Source: Mustelus asterias (taxonomy: Eukaryota). Taken from it: a stretch of DNA of 64,000 nt. The stretch spans positions 65,224,001-65,288,000 of the forward strand of contig NC_135822.1 in NCBI RefSeq assembly GCF_964213995.1. Reading direction: 5' to 3'. A program made the translations under genes and the position numbers. Below, one piece after another: positions 3,121-63,512 of this stretch (position 1 is the stretch's first letter; each line of letters begins with the position of its first letter). The notes below the pieces were generated by a model. The model did not search any database. It was not told the origin of the DNA and saw only the letters and a list, made by a program, of their open reading frames with translations.

Positions 3121-3456
<336 letters not shown>

Positions 3457-13035: not shown

Positions 13036-13230
13036 AGAATACTGATAATTTTTCTTCACTGAATTAGGGATATTGAGGCATAGATCTGGCAAGCTTGCAG
13101 CACAGTAGACCATTCAGCCCATTGTGTTTATGCTGGCTCTTTGAAAGACCAATTGAACAATCCGAAACTACCCCAACTGAGATCGTGGTCAGCTGCCTCA
13201 GTAGAGACAGGAAACCAAATCTGATCAGGT

Positions 13231-13426
13231 ACCAAAAGAGAAAATGCTGGAAAATCTCAGCAGGTCTGGCAGCATCTGTAAGGAGAGAAAAGCTTTGACA
13301 AAGGGTCACCTGGACTCGAAACGTCAGCTCTTTTCTCTCCTTACAGATGCTGCCAGACCTGCTAAGATTTTCCACCATTTTCCCCTTTGGTTTCAGATTC
13401 CAGCATCCACAGTAATTTGCTTTTAT
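13231..13426 (+). mobile_element. Penelope-like non-autonomous insertion (family C), fold-back with central hammerhead-like motif
   Basis: Inverted arms 13231-13291 / 13331-13391 plus ~35-nt tail; centre agct-TTGACAA-agggtcacctggactc-GAAACGTC-agct; imperfect TSD atctga(ta)tcaggta at 13219 and 13425. Confidence 0.75.
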
Positions 13427-18518: not shown

Positions 18519-20327
18519 GTGGCAAGAGTGAAAGTTGGACCCTTGGAGGACGAGACGGGGGATTTAATAGTGGGAAATGAGGAAATGGCTGAAACTTTAA
18601 ATAAGTTTTTTGTGTCGGTCTTCACGGTGGAAGACACAAATAGTTTACCGAATATTAACGATAGAGGGTTGGTAGGAGGAGAGGTACTCAATACAATTAA
18701 TGTTACCAAGGAGGCAGTGCTTGGTAGACTAATGGGACTGAAGGTGGACAAGTCCCCGGGCCCAGATGGAATGCATCCCAGGGTACTGAAAGAAATGTCA
18801 GAGGTAATAGCGGAAGCGTTAGTGGTTATTTATCAAAATTCGTTGGATTCTGGGGTAATGCCGGCAGATTGGAAAATGGCTAATGTTTAAAAAAGGAAAT
18901 AAGACAAAAGGCGGGTAACTACAGGCCGGTTAGCTTAACGTCTGTAGTTGGGAAAATGCTGGAATCCATCATTCAAGAAGAAATAGCAGGCCATCTGGAT
19001 AAGAATGGTTCGATTAATCAGCAGCATGGATTCATGAGGGGAAAGTCGTGCTTGACGAACTTGTTGGAGTTTTATGAAGATGTGACTAGTGCGGTTGACG
19101 GAGGGGAACCGGTGGATGCGGTGTTTTTGGATTTCCAAAAGACGTTTGATAAGGTGCCTCACAAAAGGTTGCTGAAGAAGATTGGGTCACACGGAGTTGG
19201 GGGTAGGGTGTTAGCGTGGATTGGGGATTGGCTATCCGACAGGAAGCAGAGAGTCGGAATAAATGGGTGCTTTTCTGGTTGGCAGATGGTAACTAGTGGC
19301 GTGCCACAGGGATCGGAACTGGGGCCTCAACTATTTACCATTTATATAGACGATCTGGAGGAGGGGACTGAGTGTAGGGTAACTAAGTTTGCAGACAACA
19401 CAAAGATAAGTGGAAAAGTGAATCGTGTGGAGGGCGTAGAAGGTTTACAGAGAGATTTGGACAGGCTGAGTGAGTGGGCGAGGATCTGGCAGATGGAGTA
19501 TAACGTTGACAAATGCGAGGTTATTCACTTTGGAGGAAATAATAGCAAATTGGATTATTATCTAAATGGAAAAAATTACAACATGCTACTGTGCAAAGGG
19601 ACCTGGGGGTCCTTGTGCATGAGACGCAAAAACCCAGTCTGCAGGTGCAACAGGTGACAAAGAAGACAAATGGGATGTTGGCCTATATCGCAAGGGGGAT
19701 AGAATATAAAAGCAGAGATGTCTTGCTGCATCTGTACAGGGCATTGGTGAGGCTGCAGCTGGAATACTGTGTGCAGTATTGGTCCCCTTATTTGCGGAAG
19801 GATGTATTGGCCTTGGAGGGAGTGCAGAGAATGTTCACCAGGTTGATACGAGAGATGAGGGGTGTTGATTATGAGGAGTGACTGAGCAGATTGGGTTTGT
19901 GCTCGTTGGAATTTAGAAGGCTGAGGGAGGATCTTATAGAGACCTATAAGATAATGAAGGGGCTGGATAGGGTAGAGGTGGAGAGATTCTTTCCACTTAG
20001 AAAGGAACCTAGAACTAGAGGGCACAGCCTCAAAATAAAGGGGGGTCGGTTTAGGACAGAGTTGAGGAGGAACTTCTTCTCTCAGAGGGTGGTGAATCTC
20101 TGGAATTTTCTGCCCACTGAAGTGGTGGAGGCTACCTCGTTGAATATGTTTAAATCACGGATAGATGGATTCCTGATCGGTAAGGGAATTAGGGGTTATA
20201 GGGATCAGGCGGGTAAGTGGAACTGATCCACTTCAGATCAGCCATGATCTTATTGAATGGTGGGGCAGGCTCGAGGGGCTAGATGGCCTACTCCTGCTCC
20301 TATTTCTTATGTTCTTATGTTCTTATG
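18519..20327 (+). mobile_element. CR1 LINE, 5'-truncated, disrupted ORF2 (RT)
   Basis: KSPGPDG, YRPVSLTS, QHGF, DFQKTFD, SGVPQGS, FADN motifs with frameshifts and stops; (ttcttatg)n tail. Confidence 0.95.
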
Positions 20328-24992: not shown

Positions 24993-26390
24993 AAATTCAT
25001 TCATGGGATGTGGGCATCGCTGACTGGGCCAGCATGAATTGGGGGTAGGGTGTTAGCGTGGATTGGGGATTGGCTATCCGACAGGAAGCAGAGAGTCGGA
25101 ATAAATGGGTGCTTTTCTGGTTGGCAGATGGTAACTAGTGGCGTGCCGCACGGATCGGTACTGGGGCCTCAACTATTTACCATTTATATAGATGATCGGG
25201 AGGAGGGGACTGAGTGTAGGGTAACAAAGTTTGCAGACGACACAAAGATAAGTGGAAAAGTGAATCGTGTGGAGGGCGTAGAAGGTCTGCAGAGAGATTT
25301 GGACAGGCTGAGTGAGTGGGCGAGGATCTGGCAGATGGAGTATAACGTTGACAAATGCGAGGTTATTCACTTTGGAAGAAATAATAGCAAATTGGATTAT
25401 TATCTAAATGGAAAGAAATTACGACATGCTACTGTGCAAAGGGACCTGGGGGTCCTTGTGCATGAGACGCAAAAACCCAGTCTGCAGGTGCAACAGGTGA
25501 TCAAGAAGGCAAATGGGATGTTGACCTATATCGCAAGGGGGATAGAATATAAAAGCAGAGATGTCTTGCTGCATCTATACAGGGCATTGGTGAGGCCGCA
25601 GCTGGAATACTGTGTGCAGTATTGGTCCCCTTATTTGCGGAAGGATATATTGGCCTTGGAGGGAGTGCAGAGAAGGTTCACCATGTTGATACGAGAGATG
25701 AGGGGTGTTGATTATGAGGAGAGACTGAGCAGATTGGGTTTGTATTCGTTGGAATTTAGAAGGCTGAGGGGGGATCTTATAGAGACCTATAAGATAATGA
25801 AGGGGCTGGATAGGGTAGAGGTGGAGAGATTCTTTCCACTTAGAAAGGAACCTAGAACTAGAGGGCACAGCCTCAAAATAAAGGGGGGTCGGTTTAGGAC
25901 AGAATTGAGGAGGAACTTCTTCTCTCAGAGGGTGGTGAATCTCTGGAATTCTCTGCCCACTGAAGTGGTGGAGGCTACCTCGTTGAATATGTTTAAATCA
26001 CGGATAGATGGCTTCCTGATTGGTAAGGGAATTAGGGGTGATAGGGATCAGGCGGGTAAGTGGAACTGATCCACTTCAGATCGGCCATGATCTTATTGAA
26101 TGGCGGGGCAGGCTCGAGGGGCTAGATGGCCTACTCCCGCTCCTATTTCTTATGTTCTTATGTTCTTATGAATTGCCCACCCCTAAAGAGCCCTTGAGAA
26201 GGTGGTGATGGGACATCTTCTTGAACCATGGTGCTGTTCGGAAGTGAGTTCCAGAGTTTTGACCCAGCGTCAGTGAAGGAATGGTCAGGATGATGTGTGA
26301 CTTGGAGGGGAACTTGTGAATAGTGGTGTTCCCATGTGTCTTCTGCCCTTGTCCTTCAAGGTGGTCGTGGCTGTGGGTTTGGAAGGTGAC
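24993..26390 (-). mobile_element. Older LINE 3' end split by the 25042 CR1
   Basis: gggatgtgggcatcgctg...ccagcat resumes after the CR1 as tgcccacc...cccttgagaaggtggtg; plus-strand relative at 51260-51430. Confidence 0.6.
25042..26167 (+). mobile_element. Young CR1 LINE, 5'-truncated, open 339-aa ORF2 C-terminus
   Basis: FADD motif; near-identical to 19199-20327; 8-bp TSD ATGAATTG at 25034-25041 and 26168-26175. Confidence 0.95.
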
Positions 26391-26768: not shown

Positions 26769-26888
26769 TGGGGTGTGGTTTATGGGGTGTGGTTTATGGG
26801 GTGTGGTTTATGGGGTGTGGTTTATGGGGTGTGGTTTATGGGGTGTTGTTTATGGGGTGTGGTTTATGGGGTGTGGTTTATGGGGTGT
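26769..26888. repeat. 14-bp minisatellite (TATGGGGTGTGGTT)~8.5
   Basis: Direct tandem copies, one variant unit (ggggtgttgttt). Confidence 0.95.
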
Positions 26889-27477
26889 GCCAGTGAGAGA
26901 TACAACTTGGGTGAGAAGCATCAAGTAAATGCTGAAGAATCCTCCAGAAGAAAACTGTTTCAAACTGTGCCAAACGAGAAGCCTTTGTGTCAAGCTCGTG
27001 GTAACTTTGGGAGGCAAGGGATGAGATTGCAGAGCCTTTGGCTTTGATCTTTGGGTCCTCGCTGTCCACGGGGATGGTGCCAGAGGACTGGAGAATGGCG
27101 AATGTTGTTCCTCTGTTTAAGAAAGGGAATAGAAATGACCCTGGTAATTATAGACCGGTTAGTCTTACTTCGGTGGTTGGTAAGTTGATGGAAAAGGTCC
27201 TTAGGGATGGGATTTACAACCATTTATAAAGATGCGGATTAATCCGGGATAGTCAGCACGGATTCGTGAAGGGCAAGTCGTGCCTCACAAATTTGATCGA
27301 ATTTTTTGAGGAGGTAACCAAGTGTGTTGATGAAGGTAGGGCAGTTGATGTCATATACATGGATTTTAGTAAGGCGTTTGATAAGGTCCCCCATGGTCGG
27401 CTTATGATGAAAGTGAAGAGGTGTGGGATAGAGGGAAAGTTGGCCGATTGGATAGGTAACTGGCTATCTGATCGAAG

Positions 27478-27735
27478 TCATGATGTGGAGATGCCGGCGT
27501 TGGACTGGGGTAAACACAGTAAGAAGTCTCACAACACCAGGTTAAAGTCCAACAGGTTTATTTGGTAGCAAATACCATAAGCTTTCGGAGCACTGTTCCT
27601 TCGTCAGATGGAGTGGAAATGTGCTCTCAAACATTCCACTCCATCTGTCGAAGGAGCAGTGCTCCGAAAGCTTATGGTATTTGCTACCAAGTAAACCTGT
27701 TGGACTTTAACCTGGTGTTGTGAGACTTCTTACTG
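27478..27735 (-). mobile_element. Penelope-like palindromic mini-element (family A)
   Basis: ~39-nt tail 27478-27516, inverted arms 27517-~27622 / ~27631-27735; perfect 13-bp TSD TATCTGATCGAAG at 27465-27477 and 27736-27748. Confidence 0.9.
27575..27611 (-). ncRNA. Minimal hammerhead ribozyme motif (family A)
   Basis: ccat-CTGACGA-aggaacagtgctcc-GAAAGCTT-atgg; the mirror copy at 27641-27677 has a CTGTCGA core mutation. Confidence 0.65.
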
Positions 27736-29549
27736 TATCTGATCGAAGACAGAGGGTGGTGGTGGATGGAAAATTTTCGGATTGGAGGCAGGTTGCTAGC
27801 GGAGTGCCACAGGGATCAGTGCTTGGTCCTCTGCTCTTTGTGATTTTTATTAATGACTTAGAGGAGGGGACTGAAGGGTGGATCAGTAAATTTGCTGATG
27901 ACACCAAGATTGGTGGAGTAGTGGATGAGGTGGAGGGCTGTTGTAGGCTGCAAAGAGACATAGATAGGATGCAAAGCTGGGCTGAAAAATGGCAAATGGA
28001 GTTTAACCCTGATAAATGTGAGGTGATTCATTTTGGTAGGACTAATTTAAATGTGGATTACAGGGTCAAAGGTAGGGTTCTGAAGACTGTGGAGGAACAG
28101 AGAGATCTTGGGGTCCATATCCACAGATCTCTAAAGGTTGCCACTCAAGTGGACAGAGCTGTGAAGAAGGCCTATAGTGTGTAGGCTTTTATTAACAGGG
28201 GGTTGGAGTTTACGAGCCATGGGGTTATGCTGCAACTGTACAGAACCTTGGTGAGACCACATTTGGAATATTGTGTGCAGTTCTGGTCACCTCACTATAA
28301 GAAGGATGTGGAAGCGCTGGAAAGAGTGCAGAGGAGATTTACCAGGATGCTGCCTGGTTTGGAGGGTAGGTCTTATGAGGAAAGGTTGAGGGTGCTCGGG
28401 CTGTTCTCTCTGGAGCGGAGGAGGCTGAGGGGAGACTTAATAGAGGTTTATAAACTGATGAAGGGGATAGATAGAGTGAACGTTCAAAGACTATTTCCTC
28501 AGGTGGATGGAGCTATTACAAGGGGGCATAACTATAGGGTTCATGGGGGTGGGAGATATAGGAAGGATATCAGAGGTAGGTTCTTTACGCAGAGAGTGGT
28601 TGGGGTGTGGAATGGAACATTTAAGCGGTTATTGGATAGGCACATGGAGCACACCATGATGATAGGGAGTGGGATAGCTTGATCTTGGTTTCAGATAAAG
28701 CTCAGCACAACATCGTGGGCCGAAGGGCCTGTTCTGTGCTGTACTGTTCTGTGTTCTATGTTCTAACTCTTCAGAAGCTCATGTGTCTGTAAGGTGTTGC
28801 TGGGGTAAAGAAATAGTGTGAATCTGAGTCATCTTCTTGTGTTTGTATTGAGATCTTTCCAACACATTTATGTCTGGTGTAATATGGCTAATTTTTCTTG
28901 TTTAATTAATACTTTATTCTTTGTGTGATGAGTTCACGAGTAGACTCCTGTGAATTTGTTCAGTAACTTTCCTCCATGGCTTATCTAAAAAAAGTTAGGA
29001 TCTCTCACACCAGGTTTCACTCTGGAATCTGACGTCCAGTTTGAACATCAGCTGGGATTGTCACAGTCAGACAGCGAGAACTAAATACTTCAGAAAGCCA
29101 AAAGGAGTATAGATTGAGAAGGTGTGAAATCAAAAAAAGGAAATTAGAAAAGCAAATTGGGGCAAGAATCAATATTGGCAAATAAAATCAAGGAGAACCC
29201 AAAGATATTTTATTAATACATGAAGAGTAAGAGGATAACTAAGGTAGGACCTATAAAAGACCAAATAGGTGGAGGATGTGGGTATGGTGCTTAATGAATA
29301 CTTTGCATCTGTCTTCACAAAAGAAGGGGACAATGCAGACATTGTATATTCAGAGGAATGTGAAGTATTGGATGTGATAAACATAGGGAGAGAAGAAGTA
29401 TGAAGGGCATTAACATTCTCGAAAGTAGATAAATCATGAGAGCCGGATGAAATGTACCACAACTTGAGTACTGTGTGGTGTTAAAATAAGGTAAGAAGTT
29501 TAACAACACCAGGTTAAAGTCCAACAGGTTTATTTGGTAGCAAAAGCCA

Positions 29550-29586
29550 CACAAGCTTTCGGAGCTCCAAGCCCCTTCTTCAGGTG
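29550..29586 (-). ncRNA. Minimal hammerhead ribozyme motif (mirror copy)
   Basis: Reverse complement of 30892-30928. Confidence 0.7.
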
Positions 29587-29795
29587 AGTGGGAATTCTGT
29601 TCACAAACAGAGCATATAAAGACACAAACTCAATTTACATGAATAATGGTTGGAATGCGAATACTTACAACTAATCAAGTCTTTAAGAAACAAAACAATG
29701 TGAGTGGAGAGAGCATCAAGACAGGCTAAAAAGATGTGTATTGTTTGCAGACAAGACAGCCAGTGAAACTCTGCAGGTCTAGGCAACTGTGGGGG

Positions 29796-30234
29796 TTACA
29801 AATAGTGTGACATGAACCCAATATCCCGGTTGAGGCCGTCCTCGTGTGTGCGGAACTTGGCTATCAGTTTCTGCTCAGCGACTCTGCGCTGTCGTGTGTC
29901 GCGAAGGCCGCCTTGGAGAACGCTTACCCGAATATCAGAGGCCGAATGCCCGTGACCGCTGAAGTGCTCCCCAACAGGAAGAGAACAGTCTTGCCTGGTG
30001 ATTGTCGAGCGGTGTTCATTCATCCGTTGTCGCAGCGTCTGCATAGTTTCCCCAATGTACCATGCCTCGGGACATCCTTTCTTGCAGCGTATCAGGTAGA
30101 CAACGTTGGCCGAATTGCAAGAGTATGTACCGTGTACCTGGTGGATGGTGTTCTCACGTGAGATGATGGCATCTGTGTCGATGATCCGGCACGTCTTGCA
30201 GAGGTTGCTGTGGCAGGGTTGTGTGGTGTCATGG
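29796..30234 (-). pseudogene. GIY-YIG endonuclease C-terminal fragment of a Penelope-like ORF (left arm, frame open)
   Basis: PCHSNLCKTC Cys-rich linker, NVVYLIRC, WYIGET, RMNEH, EHF, AEQKLI, GLN motifs; no RT domain and no native start. Confidence 0.9.
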
Positions 30235-30244
30235 TCACTGTTCT

Positions 30245-30682
30245 CCATGACACCACACAACCCTGCCACAGCAACCTCTGCAAGACGTGCCGGATCATCG
30301 ACATAGATGCCATCATCTCACGTGAGAACACCATCCACCAGGTACACGGTACACACTCTTGCAATTCGGCCAACGTTGTCTACCTGATACGCTGCAAGAA
30401 AGATGTCCCGAGGCATGGTACATTGGGGAAACTATGCAGACGCTGCGACAACGGATGAATGAACACCGCTCGACAATCACCAGGCAAGACTGTTCTCTTC
30501 CTGTTGGGGAGCACTTCAGCGGTCACGGGCATTCGGCCTCTGATATTCGGGTAAGCGTTCTCCAAGGCGGCCTTCGCGACACACGACAGCACAGAGTCGC
30601 TGAGCAGAAACTGATAGCCAAGTTCCGCACACACGAGGACGGCCTCAACCGGGATATTGGGTTCATGTCACACTATTTGTAA
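30245..30682 (+). pseudogene. GIY-YIG fragment (right arm), frameshifted
   Basis: Mirror of the left arm with a 1-nt deletion near 30403 (aagaaagatgtcc vs aagaaaggatgtcc). Confidence 0.9.
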
Positions 30683-30891
30683 CCCCCACAGTTGCCTAGA
30701 CCTGCAGAGTTTCACTGGCTGTCTTGTCTGGAGACAATATACATCTTTTTAGTCTGTCTTGATGCTCTCTCCACTCACATTGTTTTGTTTCTTAAAGACT
30801 TGATTAGTTGTAAGTATTCGCATTCCAACCATTATTCATGTAAATTGAGTTTGTGTCTTTATATGCTCTGTTTGTGAACAGAATTCCCATT

Positions 30892-30928
30892 CACCTGAAG
30901 AAGGGGCTTGGAGCTCCGAAAGCTTGTG
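30892..30928 (+). ncRNA. Minimal hammerhead ribozyme motif
   Basis: cac-CTGAAGA-a-GGGGCT tgg AGCTCC-GAAAGCTT-gtg: helix I cac/gtg, core, helix II, palindromic AGCT helix III. Confidence 0.7.
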
Positions 30929-31778
30929 TGGCTTTTGCTACCAAATAAACCTGTTGGACTTTAACCTGGTGTTGTTAAACGTCTTACTGTGTTTACCCCA
31001 GTCAACGCCGGCATCTCCACATCGTGTTAAAATAAGTCAGGAAGGAAATTGTGGAGGGTCTGACCATTATTTTCCAATCCTCATTGGATACAAATGAGGT
31101 GCCGGAGGTTTGGAGAACTGCTAATGTTGCACCTTTGCTTAATAAGGGAGTGAGAGATAGACCAAATAATTACAAGCCAGTCTGTCTGACCTTGGTAGTG
31201 GACGAATTATTGGAATCAATTCTGAGGGACAGGATAAACCGTCACTCAGAAAGGCATGGATTAATCAAGGACAGTCTGCATGGACTTGTTAAGATAAGGT
31301 TGTGTCTGACTAATTTGGTTGAATTTTTTGAGGAAGTAACAAGAGGATTGATGAGGTTAGTGCAGTTGATGCAGTTTACGTCAATTTTAGCAAGGCTTTT
31401 GACCAATGTCCCACGTGGCAGACTGGTTAAAGAAATAAAATCCATGGGATCCTGGGAAATGCAGCAAGCTGGATACAAAATTGGCTCGGTGGAGGAACCA
31501 AAGGATAATTGGTGATGAATGTTTTTGTCACTGGGAGGCTGTTTCCAATGGGTTCCGTAGGACTCAGCACTGGGTCTCCTGCTTTTCATGGGAAATATTA
31601 ATGATTTAGAGATAAATGTCAGGGGAATGATTAATACATTTGCAGATGACACAAAATTGGCTGCATGGTTGACAGCGAGGAGGATTGTTGTAGATTACAG
31701 GAAGATAGCAATGGGCTGGTCGGGTGGGCAGAAAAGTGGCAAATGGAATTCAACCCAGAACAGTGTGAGGTGATGCAT

Positions 31779-32299: not shown

Positions 32300-32402
32300 T
32301 GTTCGGGGCGGAACCAGTCACTGTGGCTGTTGGAGCGGGGCCGGAAGCTGATGGAGTACGGAACGGAAGCAGGCATTGAGGGGTGATGGAGGCTGTGGGC
32401 AG
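32300..32402 (+). promoter_or_regulatory. TMEM230 promoter and probable non-coding exon 1
   Basis: Local CpG cluster, GC box ggggcgg (~32305), ETS-type CCGGAAG (32341) and CGGAAG (32364), donor cag|gtaacc at 32402/32403. Confidence 0.65.
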
Positions 32403-32665: not shown

Positions 32666-33370
32666 GTAGAGTCGTAGAGATTTATAGCATGGAAACAGGC
32701 CCTCCGGCCCAACTTGTCCATGCTGCCCTTTTTTTTCAAACCCCTAAACTAATCCCAATTGCCCGCATTTGGCCCATATCCCTCTATACCCATCTTACCC
32801 ATGTAACTGTCTTTTTAAAAGATAAAATTGTACCCGCCTCTACTACTACTTCTGGCAGCTTGTTCCAGACATTCACCACCCTGTGTGTGAAAAAATTGCA
32901 GTAAGAAGTTTTAACAACACCAGGTCCTGAACACTCATCGGAAGAAGGAGCTTAAGGCTCCGAAAGCTTGTGGCTTTTGCTACCAAATAAACCTGTTGGA
33001 CTTTAACCTGGTGTTGTTAAACTTCTTACTGTGTTTACCCCAGTCCAACGCCGGCATCTCCACATAATGAAAAAATTGCCCCTTTGGACACTTTTATATC
33101 TCTCCCCTCTCATCTTAAACCTATGCCCTCTAGTTTTAGACTCCCCTCCCTTTGGGAAAAGATATCGACTATCTAGCTGATCTGTGCCCCTCATTATTTT
33201 GTAGACCTCTATAAGATCACCCCTCAGCCTTCGACGCTCCAGAGAAAAAAAGTCCCAGTCTATCCAGCCTCTCCTTATAACTCAAACCATCAAGTCTCGG
33301 TAGCATCCACGTAAATCTTTTCTGCACTCTTTCTAGTTTAATAATATCCTTACTAGTTTAATAATATCCT
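32666..33370 (-). mobile_element. CR1 3' fragment in TMEM230 intron 1, interrupted
   Basis: RGHRFK, RGNFF..RVV motifs on the minus strand. Confidence 0.85.
32900..33067 (+). mobile_element. Penelope-like mini-element (family B) with short inverted 5' arm
   Basis: 26-nt inverted arm, then direct 3' end with tail; 12-bp TSD TGAAAAAATTGC at 32888-32899 and 33068-33079. Confidence 0.85.
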
Positions 33371-33921: not shown

Positions 33922-34020
33922 ATGATGCCTTCCCGTAACAACGCTGCTGCTGGGGGTTCCAGCAGCAAAGTGAAATACTCAAAACTTGCAGACAGTGATG
34001 AGGGTTATATCGATCTGCAG
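33922..34020 (+). CDS. TMEM230: TMEM230 first coding exon
   Basis: [33 protein letters not shown]; acceptor cag ending 33903, donor gttagt at 34021. Confidence 0.95.
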
Positions 34021-34756: not shown

Positions 34757-34879
34757 TTTAAGAAACTTCCGACGAAAATTCCATATAAGGCAATTGCACT
34801 TGCAACCATCTTGTTTCTGATTGGCTCGTTGTTGATTACCATTGGTGCTCTCCTGTTGACTGGATACATCAACAGTTCG
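34757..34879 (+). CDS. TMEM230: TMEM230 second coding exon (TM1)
   Basis: [41 protein letters not shown]; ctgcag acceptor, gtaagt donor, phase 0. Confidence 0.96.
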
Positions 34880-35335: not shown

Positions 35336-35476
35336 TACAGTGATACAACCTGGCCGGTGCTGATCATCGGGATCCTGGTTTTTCTTCCCGGCTTTTACCA
35401 TCTCCGGATTGCGTATTACGCCTCAAGAGGATACAGAGGCTACTCCTATGACGACATCCCAGACTTTGATGACTGA
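35336..35476 (+). CDS. TMEM230: TMEM230 last coding exon (TM2, stop)
   Basis: [46 protein letters not shown]; 33+41+46 = 120 aa in total. Confidence 0.97.
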
Positions 35477-35949: not shown

Positions 35950-37283
35950 TGAGATGGAGTACTTATACTAAGTGTTTTCTTGGGCTGTCATGTACTAAGG
36001 AATAGGTTATGTTTGAGCCTGATCAGGTGTTTTCTTTTGTAGTTAAGCCTCTGCGTTATGTTCCACTGAATTGCATTTTAAGCACCCTCATTATGAAAGG
36101 GAGGTCTGTCATTGACATTACAAAACTTTGCAGGAATTTTCCAGTTTTGTTTCTAGGATTTCAGTAGTGAGATGATTGTTGGCTGAAATTTTTGTACTGT
36201 GTCCACTTGAAGTATGAAAGACCCTTCCAAACCTGAGATGTGTCGGGACAGTGAAGTGCTGGTGGATGCACACAAAATATTTTGCACAGCATAGAAGTGT
36301 GTCGACTCAGTGAACTTTTCTATTTTGTCTTCATCCTGAATTTCCAGTTTTCTGGGCTTGAAAGGCAGATAATGGGATAATGTGTTATATTTACACAAAG
36401 CTTCAAAATCAGTTGGGGAAAATGAATTGAAACGGGTCCTGCTTCATTGGTAGCCCATTCACTCGGGTCTCAGGCTGATTTACATGCAAATGCTGTGATG
36501 GATTTTATTTTGTGATTTGAAAAGTGTAAGTATGATAAACTTCACATATAAGCCTTGGATGCCTTAAAATCAAGTGACGTTGCAATATAGGCCTGTAAAT
36601 TTCATTTGAGGTTTTCCGTTCAAGCAGTCTTCATGTTGCAAAACAAAATCCCTTCAATGTCAGTCTGTAATTGGATTGGGTCTTCTGTTGACCTGCCCTC
36701 CCCCATTCCTGGTTTGACTTGTTGGTTTCACACTTACTGCAAACTCATATTTGCTACTAACAATCTATCGGATAGAGGAATCAAGTCCGTATGTACCAGG
36801 ATGTTGAAATGCCTAGGGTCATCCTAGCTGCCTGTCTGCACTTAGACTTAAGATAGCAGATAGAACATGAACACTGGTGGGAACCGGCTAGCTTTTACGC
36901 CCACAGTCTTTCTGCCAGAGACTGGTCCCAAAGCTTTCTTGGGTTTTGCATAATGTGGGCACTGGTGTCAACCCTTTTATCCTGCAGATCTTCCGCTAAC
37001 TGCCATTTGTGGCAGCGCTTTCGCATGAAAGGATACAAAAGTTGAACATGTTTGTGTTCAGTTTGGAATTGAGCTTGGCTACCATTTTCCTTCTGTCGAA
37101 GAAGAATGTCAGCAGGTGATATTATTCAAGGCAGAGATAGACAGGCTTCTGATAGATAAGGGAGTCAAGGATTATGGGGAGAAGAAGATAAAGTGGAGTT
37201 GACACCACAGCCAGATCAGTCATGATCTTATTGAATGGTGGAGCTCAAAGGACTGAATGTGGCCTCCTGTGTGTAAGTTCCTA

Positions 37284-37533
37284 GTAAGAAGTCTCACAAC
37301 ACCAGGTTAAAGTCCAACAGGTTTATTTGGTAGCAAATACCATAAGCTTTCGGAGCGCTGCTCATTCGTCAGATGGAGTGGTTATCTGTTCTCAAACAGT
37401 GCAAACAGACACAGAAATCAAATTACAGAATACTGATTAGAATGCAAATCTCTACAGCCAGCCAGGTCATAAATGTACAGACAATGTGGGTGGAGGGAGC
37501 ATTCAACACAGGTTAAAGAGTTGTGTATTGTCC
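37284..37533 (-). mobile_element. Penelope-like single-arm insertion (family A), no tail
   Basis: 12-bp TSD TGTAAGTTCCTA at 37272-37283 and 37534-37545; hammerhead-like motif at 37340-37376 (minus). Confidence 0.85.
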
Positions 37534-54978: not shown

Positions 54979-54997
54979 TAAGGGGGAGGTAGAACTA

Positions 54998-55114
54998 AGA
55001 GAGAAAATGGTGGAAAATCTCAGCAGGTCTGGCAACATCTGTAAGGAGAGAAAAGAGCTGACGTTTCGAGTCCAGATGACCCTTTGTCAAAGCTAAAAGC
55101 TTTGTCAAAGCAAA
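54998..55114 (-). mobile_element. Penelope-like single-arm insertion (family C)
   Basis: Reverse complement of 13291-13385 including the hammerhead-like motif; imperfect 13-bp TSD at 54985-54997 and 55115-55127. Confidence 0.75.
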
Positions 55115-55897: not shown

Positions 55898-56558
55898 CAG
55901 AAAACAAAGAATAAAGTACACGACAGCACAGGAACAGGCCCTTCGGCCCACCAAGTTTGTGCTGACAGATGCCTCTCTGATCTCATTTTTTTGTCCATAC
56001 ATCCCTCTATATCCCTGCCTATATATATATGCCTCTATTCCCTGCCTATTCATGTATCTACAGTAAGAAGTTTAACAACACCAGGTTAAAGTCCAACAGG
56101 TTTATTTGGTAGCAAAAGCCACACAAGCTTTCGAGGCTCTGAGCCCCTTCTTCAGGTGAGTGGGAATTCATGTATCTATCCAGATGCCTCTTGAAACGTT
56201 GTAATAGAATTTGCTTCCACCACCTCCTCTGGCAGCGCATTCCAGGCATTTACCACTCTGTGTGTGAAAATCTTGCCCCTTGCATCTCTTTTAAACTTTC
56301 CCTCTTTCACTCTCAACCTATGCCGCCTAGTAATTGACCCTTCGACCCTGGGAAATAGAGTCTGACGATCCACTCTATACAAGCCTGTCATAATCTTGTA
56401 AACCTCTATCAGGTTCCCCCCTCATCCTCCGAGGTTCCAATGAAAACAATCCAAGTTTGTTCAACCTGTCTTCATTGTTCATATCCTCCAACTCCAGGCA
56501 ACATCCAAGTCATCTCTTCTACATCCTTTCCAATGCATCAAGATCCTTCCGGTCGAGT

Positions 56559-62730: not shown

Positions 62731-62894
62731 ATGATGTGGAGATGCCGGCGTTGGACTGGGGTGAACACAGTAAGAAGTCTCACAACACTAGGTTAAAGTC
62801 CAACAGGTTTATTTGGTAGCAAATACCAGTTACATTGGTATTTGCTACCAAATAAACCTGTTGGACTTTAACCTGGTGTTGTGAGACTTCTTAC
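62731..62894 (-). mobile_element. Penelope-like palindromic mini-element (family A), 164 bp
   Basis: Tail plus ~59-bp inverted arms that stop just short of the hammerhead motif; 13-bp TSD TTTATTATCCTTA at 62718-62730 and 62895-62907. Confidence 0.9.
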
Positions 62895-63512
62895 TTTATT
62901 ATCCTTAGCCAGGGTAGCAGTTAGGGTGCCGCAGTTGGCCTCAACTTCTCTGGTGTAGGGAGGTATCATATCTCTGATTGATCATGCCCCTAATTACTAC
63001 CAAGCACCTTGTGTGTGTGGGTTTGGTTCTGTTTTAGTTGCTGTGGGGAGGAGGTTCTTCCATGGACGTTGATTTGGGGGAACAAAAAGAACGCCTTCTT
63101 GCATTGGGATTCCAAAATCCACCCTATGATGTAAACTGGGCAGGTTCCATTGTACAAGAAGCCAAGGAAAAATAAAAACACCTGTATTTTAAATTGTGTG
63201 CGATATTAAGGATTAAAGTTGGGCAGGGCTCACAGCTGTTTCTACTCGGTCTTGCAGTAAGAATATAGTATCTCTCCCTGATGAGTGAATTAGAAAAAAT
63301 ATTAGCTTTTGGTCAAACTCATGATGATGCTTCACTGGGGGAAAATGTCCCAAACCAAAGGTAAATAAATAGCAATTTTGTGCTGAAGGTTTTTTCTCCG
63401 CCTTTTCCTCCCTCCCTTTTAAAATGCTTGTTCCTCCCTGGGGTGTGTTTCACAGGTGCGAGTGTTTTTCTGAGTGATAATTCTTCTCCTTAATTGTTCG
63501 GTGTCTTGTGAA

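Follow-up and report, generated by a model that had tools for sequence, protein, structure and literature searches.

In LINE-1 twin priming, both target ends prime reverse transcription and the two cDNAs are joined by microhomology inside one target duplication (TSD); the second primer pairs with a more 5' part of the RNA, which leaves the two parts of the insert without overlap. Among EN+ Penelope-like elements, complex insertions have been described in which an inverted, 5'-truncated copy lies head-to-head beside the 5' end of the element, a tail of 30-40 bp is found at one end and one TSD surrounds the unit (PMC3846280; PMC8557442). The protein of an anole Penelope-like element, PAc (Poseidon from Anolis), nicks and extends both strands and begins reverse transcription at two positions, one at each boundary of the tail; a dimeric form is predicted for it (PMC11167929). 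In its main text, the PAc study (PMC11167929) draws no connection from two-strand priming to inverted arms, and in the passages covered of the papers on complex insertions (PMC3846280; PMC8557442) neither tail pairing nor arm haplotypes nor junctions are counted.

The insertion described here lies within a 64,000-nt stretch of DNA from Mustelus asterias, referred to below as the window. Like the product of LINE-1 twin priming, it has one TSD and a microhomology joint, and both target ends are proposed to have primed; unlike in LINE-1, both cDNAs would have begun at the 3' end and copied the same sequence, which gives a palindrome. Its layout has already been published for EN+ Penelope-like elements (PMC3846280; PMC8557442), from which it differs in that both arms are truncated near the same point, making the whole insert palindromic, and in that the TSDs of its family are 11-15 bp long, compared with 8-10 bp in the rotifer examples. 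It also resembles PAc in several respects: two start sites for reverse transcription, observed in PAc and proposed here, bound the tail; extension of both strands, observed in PAc, is proposed here; and the targets of PAc are AT-rich, the TSDs here averaging 35% GC. The pLTR of PAc contains a hammerhead, and a candidate minimal motif can be read in the arms here. The putative start sites of the present element are at the ATG and 36 nt ahead of it, those of PAc 111-118 nt into the ORF, and PAc belongs to a different clade (PMC11167929). The locus itself is of little weight; the genome-wide set of such insertions matters more.

Structure of the insertion and its target site

We found two near-identical inverted arms, in which 29491-30234 (744 nt, element on the minus strand) is matched by the 743 nt of the tailed arm on the plus strand (Table 1). 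Alignment of the reverse complement of 29491-30234 with 30245-31023 gave nine substitutions and one 1-nt gap, placed at 30077/30402, thus reproducing the ten or so differences, one of them a frameshift, of the original prediction; the alignment also agreed with it in limiting the 36-nt tail to the right arm. As had been claimed as well, one 13-bp TSD, GTGTTAAAATAAG, brackets the whole insert. Both copies of this repeat were found, within an old CR1-like LINE. Of four other CR1-like copies compared, three (L053-L055) align collinearly with the flanks and contain the corresponding 13-mer once, the fourth (L052) being alignable only further out. Because the 13-mer occurs once in collinear CR1-like copies, the repeat is a target duplication. 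Directly left of the TSD, at 29459-29477, about 14 nt extend beyond the other CR1-like copies; a contig from sequencing run X13 has the same stretch ungapped.

Table 1. Features of the insertion and of its surroundings (positions are those of the window)
Feature	Position	Strand	Evidence
EBF/COE transcription factor exon, transcribed away from TMEM230	3121-3456	-	PF16422, E 1.5e-28
Host CR1-like LINE left of insert; aligned stretch 77-83% identical to other copies	29250-29477	+	
TSD, left copy, CR1-like LINE sequence	29478-29490	+	Duplication and comparison with other LINE copies
Arm without tail: 3' end of a 5'-truncated Penelope-like element (Cys linker, intact GIY-YIG frame, 3' UTR/pLTR)	29491-30246	-	
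Mirror copy of candidate minimal hammerhead motif	29550-29586	-	Read by eye
"10-nt spacer", part of tail-less arm	30235-30244		
CC, 2-nt microhomology common to both arms	30245-30246		
Tailed arm: same element 3' end; endonuclease frame shifted by 1-nt deletion at about 30402	30245-30987	+	
Candidate minimal type I hammerhead motif, right arm	30892-30928	+	Read by eye
36-nt tail; in full-length copies joins ORF start codon directly	30988-31023	+	L036, L249
TSD, right copy	31024-31036	+	
Host CR1-like LINE, back in register right of insert	31037-31300	+	
Putative TMEM230 non-coding first exon	near 32340-32402	+	
Likely TMEM230 coding exon	33922-34020	+	Splice signals and human sequence
Likely TMEM230 coding exon	34757-34879	+	Splice signals and human sequence
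Likely TMEM230 coding exon	35337-35476	+	Pfam PF05915 at 35351-35467

The palindrome at 29478-31036 was confirmed to be real. Unique contigs from sequencing runs X1 and X2 matched both outer junctions without difference, reaching 21-22 nt into the element, a length below the 31-nt bridging threshold, and come from one sample that is possibly the assembly's own source. In a search for the empty site, the X13 contig, which covers 29370-29499 with seven differences (four of them listed), was compatible both with absence and with presence of the insert, and X3, X5 and X11 gave no contig over the junction; no allele with a single arm within this TSD was seen in these runs.

At the centre, the antisense strand of the parent element reads GTCATGG TCACTGTTCT CC TGAAGG, and the window tracks the parent through the 10 nt and the CC, then turns to the sense strand at CCATGACACC. 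The 10-nt spacer of the original prediction is therefore present but not foreign to the element, since the parent sequence continues through it. Specifically, the left, tail-less arm extends 12 nt further 5' than the right arm, and its last 2 nt (CC) overlap the start of the right arm, so that the joint carries 2 nt of microhomology. Since those 10 nt belong to the element sequence of the tail-less arm, fold-back of a single cDNA alone cannot produce the insert: had the left arm been made first, its copy would have had no means of gaining the tail, and had the right arm been made first, there would have been no template for the extra 10 nt, so that two priming events are needed in either case.

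Identity and coding capacity of the element

The insert is one 5'-truncated Penelope-like retroelement insertion, in agreement with the single event originally proposed, having one TSD, one tailed arm and one tail-less arm. Longer copies in the same genome (L042, L036 and L034) have the single ORF of EN+ Penelope-like elements, in which a reverse transcriptase (RT; Pfam RVT_1, E 1.2e-8) is in frame with the same C-terminal GIY-YIG endonuclease. In L036 and L249 the tail continues straight into the ATG and the N-terminus of the ORF; the arms therefore end in a pLTR, the 3' end repeating the sequence ahead of the ORF start. The tail of 30-40 bp at one end, the inverted copy and the single TSD of such elements are likewise present. 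A non-autonomous DNA transposon or MITE with long TIRs was considered and rejected, as the ends are asymmetric by 36 nt, TSD length ranges over 11-15 bp and the arms, measured from the 3' end, are of freely varying length.

Both arms had been predicted to encode the GIY-YIG domain. This holds for the left arm, in which the endonuclease frame is intact (Pfam GIY-YIG, E 5.5e-5), but not for the right arm, which is frameshifted and of which the downstream piece matches at E 0.011. Both arms are without RT and without a start codon for the endonuclease frame, and neither can encode an element protein. The Cys-rich linker, thought from the outset to be typical of Neptune, contains the motif CHSNLCKTC, which fits CX2-5CxxC, and 26 of the top 30 homologues have a matching Cys motif. 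Since CX2-5CxxC in the RT-EN linker marks both Neptune and Nematis (PMC8557442), the element, judged by the linker motif alone, would fit either clade. The nearest named homologues are shark proteins (84-96% identity), followed by turtle and invertebrate proteins, and carry no clade labels.

In addition, each arm holds one putative hammerhead motif, absent from the original prediction. When read with the descriptor from PMC4209133, the candidate would comprise a CUGAAGA core, an unpaired A, a 6-bp stem II, GAAA, a palindromic AAGCUU and a 3-bp stem I. An Rfam search (E<=1) of five other loci returned no hammerhead and three weak unrelated matches.

Abundance of head-to-head pairs in the genome

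Sampling large contigs at round coordinates, in 120 stretches of 10 kb each (1.2 Mb of the 3.68-Gb genome), we located 34 head-to-head pairs, 30 of them with a TSD, and no tail-to-tail pairs; in this sample, 56 3' ends out of 124 had no partner. Extrapolation gives about 104,000 pairs in the genome (Poisson range 72,000-146,000), and the three pairs in which both arms exceed 700 bp correspond to about 9,000 genome-wide (1,900-27,000). Other long near-perfect palindromes include L105, L145, L152 and L154, which were fetched by similarity, and L231, from the round-coordinate sample. The arm divergence of the window's insert ranks 17th lowest among 39 young events (median 1.27%). With about 100,000 such pairs estimated, any suggestion that the locus is exceptional has to be abandoned: it is unexceptional, and the head-to-head pair is the usual form of the element in this genome. 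In yeast and mammalian cells, forks stall and chromosomes break at long palindromes with short spacers (PMC7999016), so that their abundance in a shark genome poses the question of how they are tolerated. Median arm divergence was 1.38% in short-spacer palindromes (n=9) and 1.23% in the others (n=30; p 0.76), giving, at low power, no sign that the former are lost faster.

The palindrome in L231 (6116-7199) is 1,049 nt long and 99.5% self-complementary, with a 1-nt loop. Both of its arms contain the same extra segment of about 62 nt, and the matches of L082, L240 and L246 break at the same place, the segment probably representing a subfamily with an insertion. At L217:5440-8437, also in the round-coordinate sample, a 3-kb head-to-head insertion has arms of about 1,430 nt with 96% identity. 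The window contains five more insertions of the same family or an older subfamily (27482-27736, 32899-33065, 62733-62895, 56060-56169 and 37283-37532), of which three are two-armed, one is a single arm with an apparent TSD and one is a further single arm. A second palindromic repeat family, with 76-nt arms 23 nt apart, is present at 13224-13398 and 54993-55094 and gave no blastn match to the Penelope-like element.

Regularities across copies

The tail is present on one arm and absent from the other in 33 of the 34 pairs of the round-coordinate sample and in 64 of the 67 pairs of a mixed set that overlaps this sample. The three exceptions in the mixed set, namely L051 (the window's own insert, cut by the locus edge) and L006 and L102 (both without a TSD), were left out of the analyses of arm length, haplotype and divergence. 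Because independence would give at most half, the one-tail rule speaks against an independent choice of start site for each arm. Exact TSDs measure 11-15 bp, with 12-13 bp in 47 of 64, and arm ends cluster at -4 to +4 of the ATG (58 ends) and at -2 to +2 of the second site (37 of 43 ends). Either arm can be the longer: in 46 young events this is the tail-less arm 28 times and the tailed arm 18 times.

The inner ends of the arms also follow a pattern. In 11 of the 46 events the arms end within 25 nt of each other, compared with 2.0 expected by permutation; for L188 and L231, two of these 11, the script extended the arms wrongly, and by eye they end within about 2 nt. In the other 35 events the arms end 53-1,668 nt apart. 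Where no bases were added, 17 of 26 junctions have microhomology of at least 2 nt, versus 15% by chance (p 1e-8), and 20 of 46 junctions have added bases, which in four of them (L010, L024, L037 and L117) were copied from sequence adjoining the cDNA end.

We found that the two arms of an event tend to share family variants. Across 14 common variable sites in 43 events, the minor allele is present in both arms 116 times and in one arm 32 times, counts that are biased because similarity to the right arm of the window's insert was the basis on which most long events were selected. Genome searches from L042:5000-5250 and L074:2600-2720, intended to supply long copies free of this selection, gave no matches. 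Haplotype concordance between arms is 78%, versus 20% when shuffled (maximum 36%), and 76% for events whose arms end more than 25 nt apart; in L261, the arms differ at one of 1,094 nt. These data support derivation of both arms from the same source locus. In three events (L130:1186-2411, L011:549-2250 and L121:861-1812), however, linked family variants differ between the arms, with a 16-nt deletion in one arm of L130, which suggests a second template or later conversion from another copy. Linkage between two right-arm variants, considered as a possible sign of a second template, was not found (both in 2, one or the other in 13 and 11, neither in 65).

Rare variants common to both arms number 14, against 288 private differences (18,355 columns, 38 events). 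Gene conversion between arms, a test for which had accompanied the original prediction, thus looks at most minor and, for this reason, arm-to-arm divergence could be used to date single insertions in the manner of paired LTRs.

Origin of the paired arms

We consider it fairly probable that both ends of a staggered cut primed reverse transcription to make the insert. The evidence in the insert itself consists of the single TSD, the tailed and tail-less arms facing outwards and the 2-nt microhomology joint; a TSD enclosing an insert with both element 3' ends outward is the geometry that we infer for priming by both 3' overhangs. The element's GIY-YIG endonuclease would nick the two strands 13 nt apart, leaving two 3' overhangs, each of which would prime the element's RT, one starting at the ATG of the ORF and so gaining the tail, the other starting 36 nt upstream and having none. 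Both cDNAs would be copied from RNA of one source locus, possibly from one molecule, and would stop early, in this insert 12 nt apart. Their 3' ends would then pair by CC/GG and be filled in by host microhomology-mediated joining, producing arms that would be near-identical at birth and would since have diverged by about 1.3%. As a more tentative extension, which we rate below even chances, an asymmetric RT-endonuclease dimer may hold one RNA and give each start site to one overhang, the cDNAs being joined by polymerase-theta-like repair.

Some of the data fit double priming less well. The anole evidence concerns Poseidon and not the clade of this element, the anole start sites are 111-118 nt inside the ORF, and equal start sites were seen on both strands, so that strict pairing was not demonstrated in that system (PMC11167929). 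The 32 one-arm minor alleles and the linked arm differences of L130, L011 and L121 remain to be accommodated, and the 56 unpaired 3' ends among 124 imply that double priming is non-obligatory or that second arms are frequently lost or are so short that they escape notice. The excess of near-equal arm ends (11/46 versus 2.0), to which the window's insert belongs, is accounted for equally well by a hybrid snap-back, a rather unlikely course in which both target ends are primed but a single long cDNA folds at its 3' end (CC/GG stem, 10-nt loop) and copies itself, the new strand being captured by homology to a short second cDNA that is the source of the other end. The junction here has precisely the form of a 10-nt loop on a 2-bp stem, the loop of L231 is 1 nt, and the shared haplotypes would not require that two RTs act on one RNA; differences towards the outer ends of the arms would be allowed. 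Nevertheless, very large loops would be required by the 35 events that end 53-1,668 nt apart and yet are concordant, and second arms of 15-27 nt (L082, L236 and window 32899-32925) read simply as two cDNAs end to end.

Between the fold-back and the twin synthesis offered by the original prediction, the data favour twin synthesis, the longer arm being without the tail and the tailed arm without the 10-nt extension. That one strand simply folded back or primed itself, the tail being left by endonuclease resolution of the intermediate, is improbable: self-priming on the antisense template (PMC3846280) and EN-mediated resolution (PMC8557442) have both been proposed, and the arms do share one source, but self-copying makes the first strand both longer and tailed, whereas the tail is missing from the longer arm of this insert and of 28 of 46 events, and the two ends match the pair of RT start sites that PAc shows in vitro (PMC11167929). 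The great abundance of the family might suggest that the arms were inserted independently, or that one copy later underwent inverted duplication, yet a single TSD surrounds both arms with none at the centre, the one-TSD layout recurs in 30 of 34 sampled pairs, tail-to-tail pairs are absent and a duplication would have no reason to stop at a fixed site 36 nt short, so that we regard this origin as very improbable. It is least credible of all that the structure is an assembly or library fold-back artefact; among the matches listed no contig spans the centre, but the ten arm differences, the one-sided tail, the TSD, the exact outer-junction contigs and the dozens of like structures, each with its own TSD, speak against it.

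Double priming thus remains the preferred reading. In the open-access literature, the scope of our search, we found neither coupled double priming nor shark Penelope palindromes. If coupled double priming is true, about 100,000 head-to-head palindromes, possibly thousands of them with arms over 700 bp, would have accumulated in the shark genome by this route. The one-tail rule, the shared haplotypes and the junction signatures provide sharp predictions for the existing in vitro assay.

Genomic neighbourhood

The insert is a dead intergenic repeat between divergent EBF-like (minus strand) and TMEM230 (plus strand) genes. The predicted position of TMEM230 downstream is upheld by the PF05915 match, the distance from the insert being about 1.3 kb to the putative first exon and 2.9 kb to the probable start codon; the two preceding coding exons in Table 1 are tentatively assigned to TMEM230 from splice signals and the human sequence. 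An SLC23A2-like gene, to be expected beside TMEM230 from human synteny, was looked for near the window and not found. A Pfam scan of 1-32500 covered 138 of the 226 frames of at least 55 aa, leaving out the shortest 76 and the 12 in or beside the insert, and yielded nothing beyond RT fragments, a COE exon and a weak match to Mating_N, a scan in which a small exon could be missed.

RNA of the insert, if made, would fold into a near-complete hairpin, with a predicted energy of -1,530 kcal/mol, an in silico value given without a shuffled comparison at such length. The cruciform and the dsRNA envisaged in the original prediction would be hypothetical properties of an insert that lies between two divergent genes. 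Elsewhere in the window, two RT-bearing LINE stretches (19180-20311 and 25022-26154) lie 5.84 kb apart with 95-97% identity, and a G-rich 14-nt tandem repeat is present in 8.6 copies at 26769-26889.
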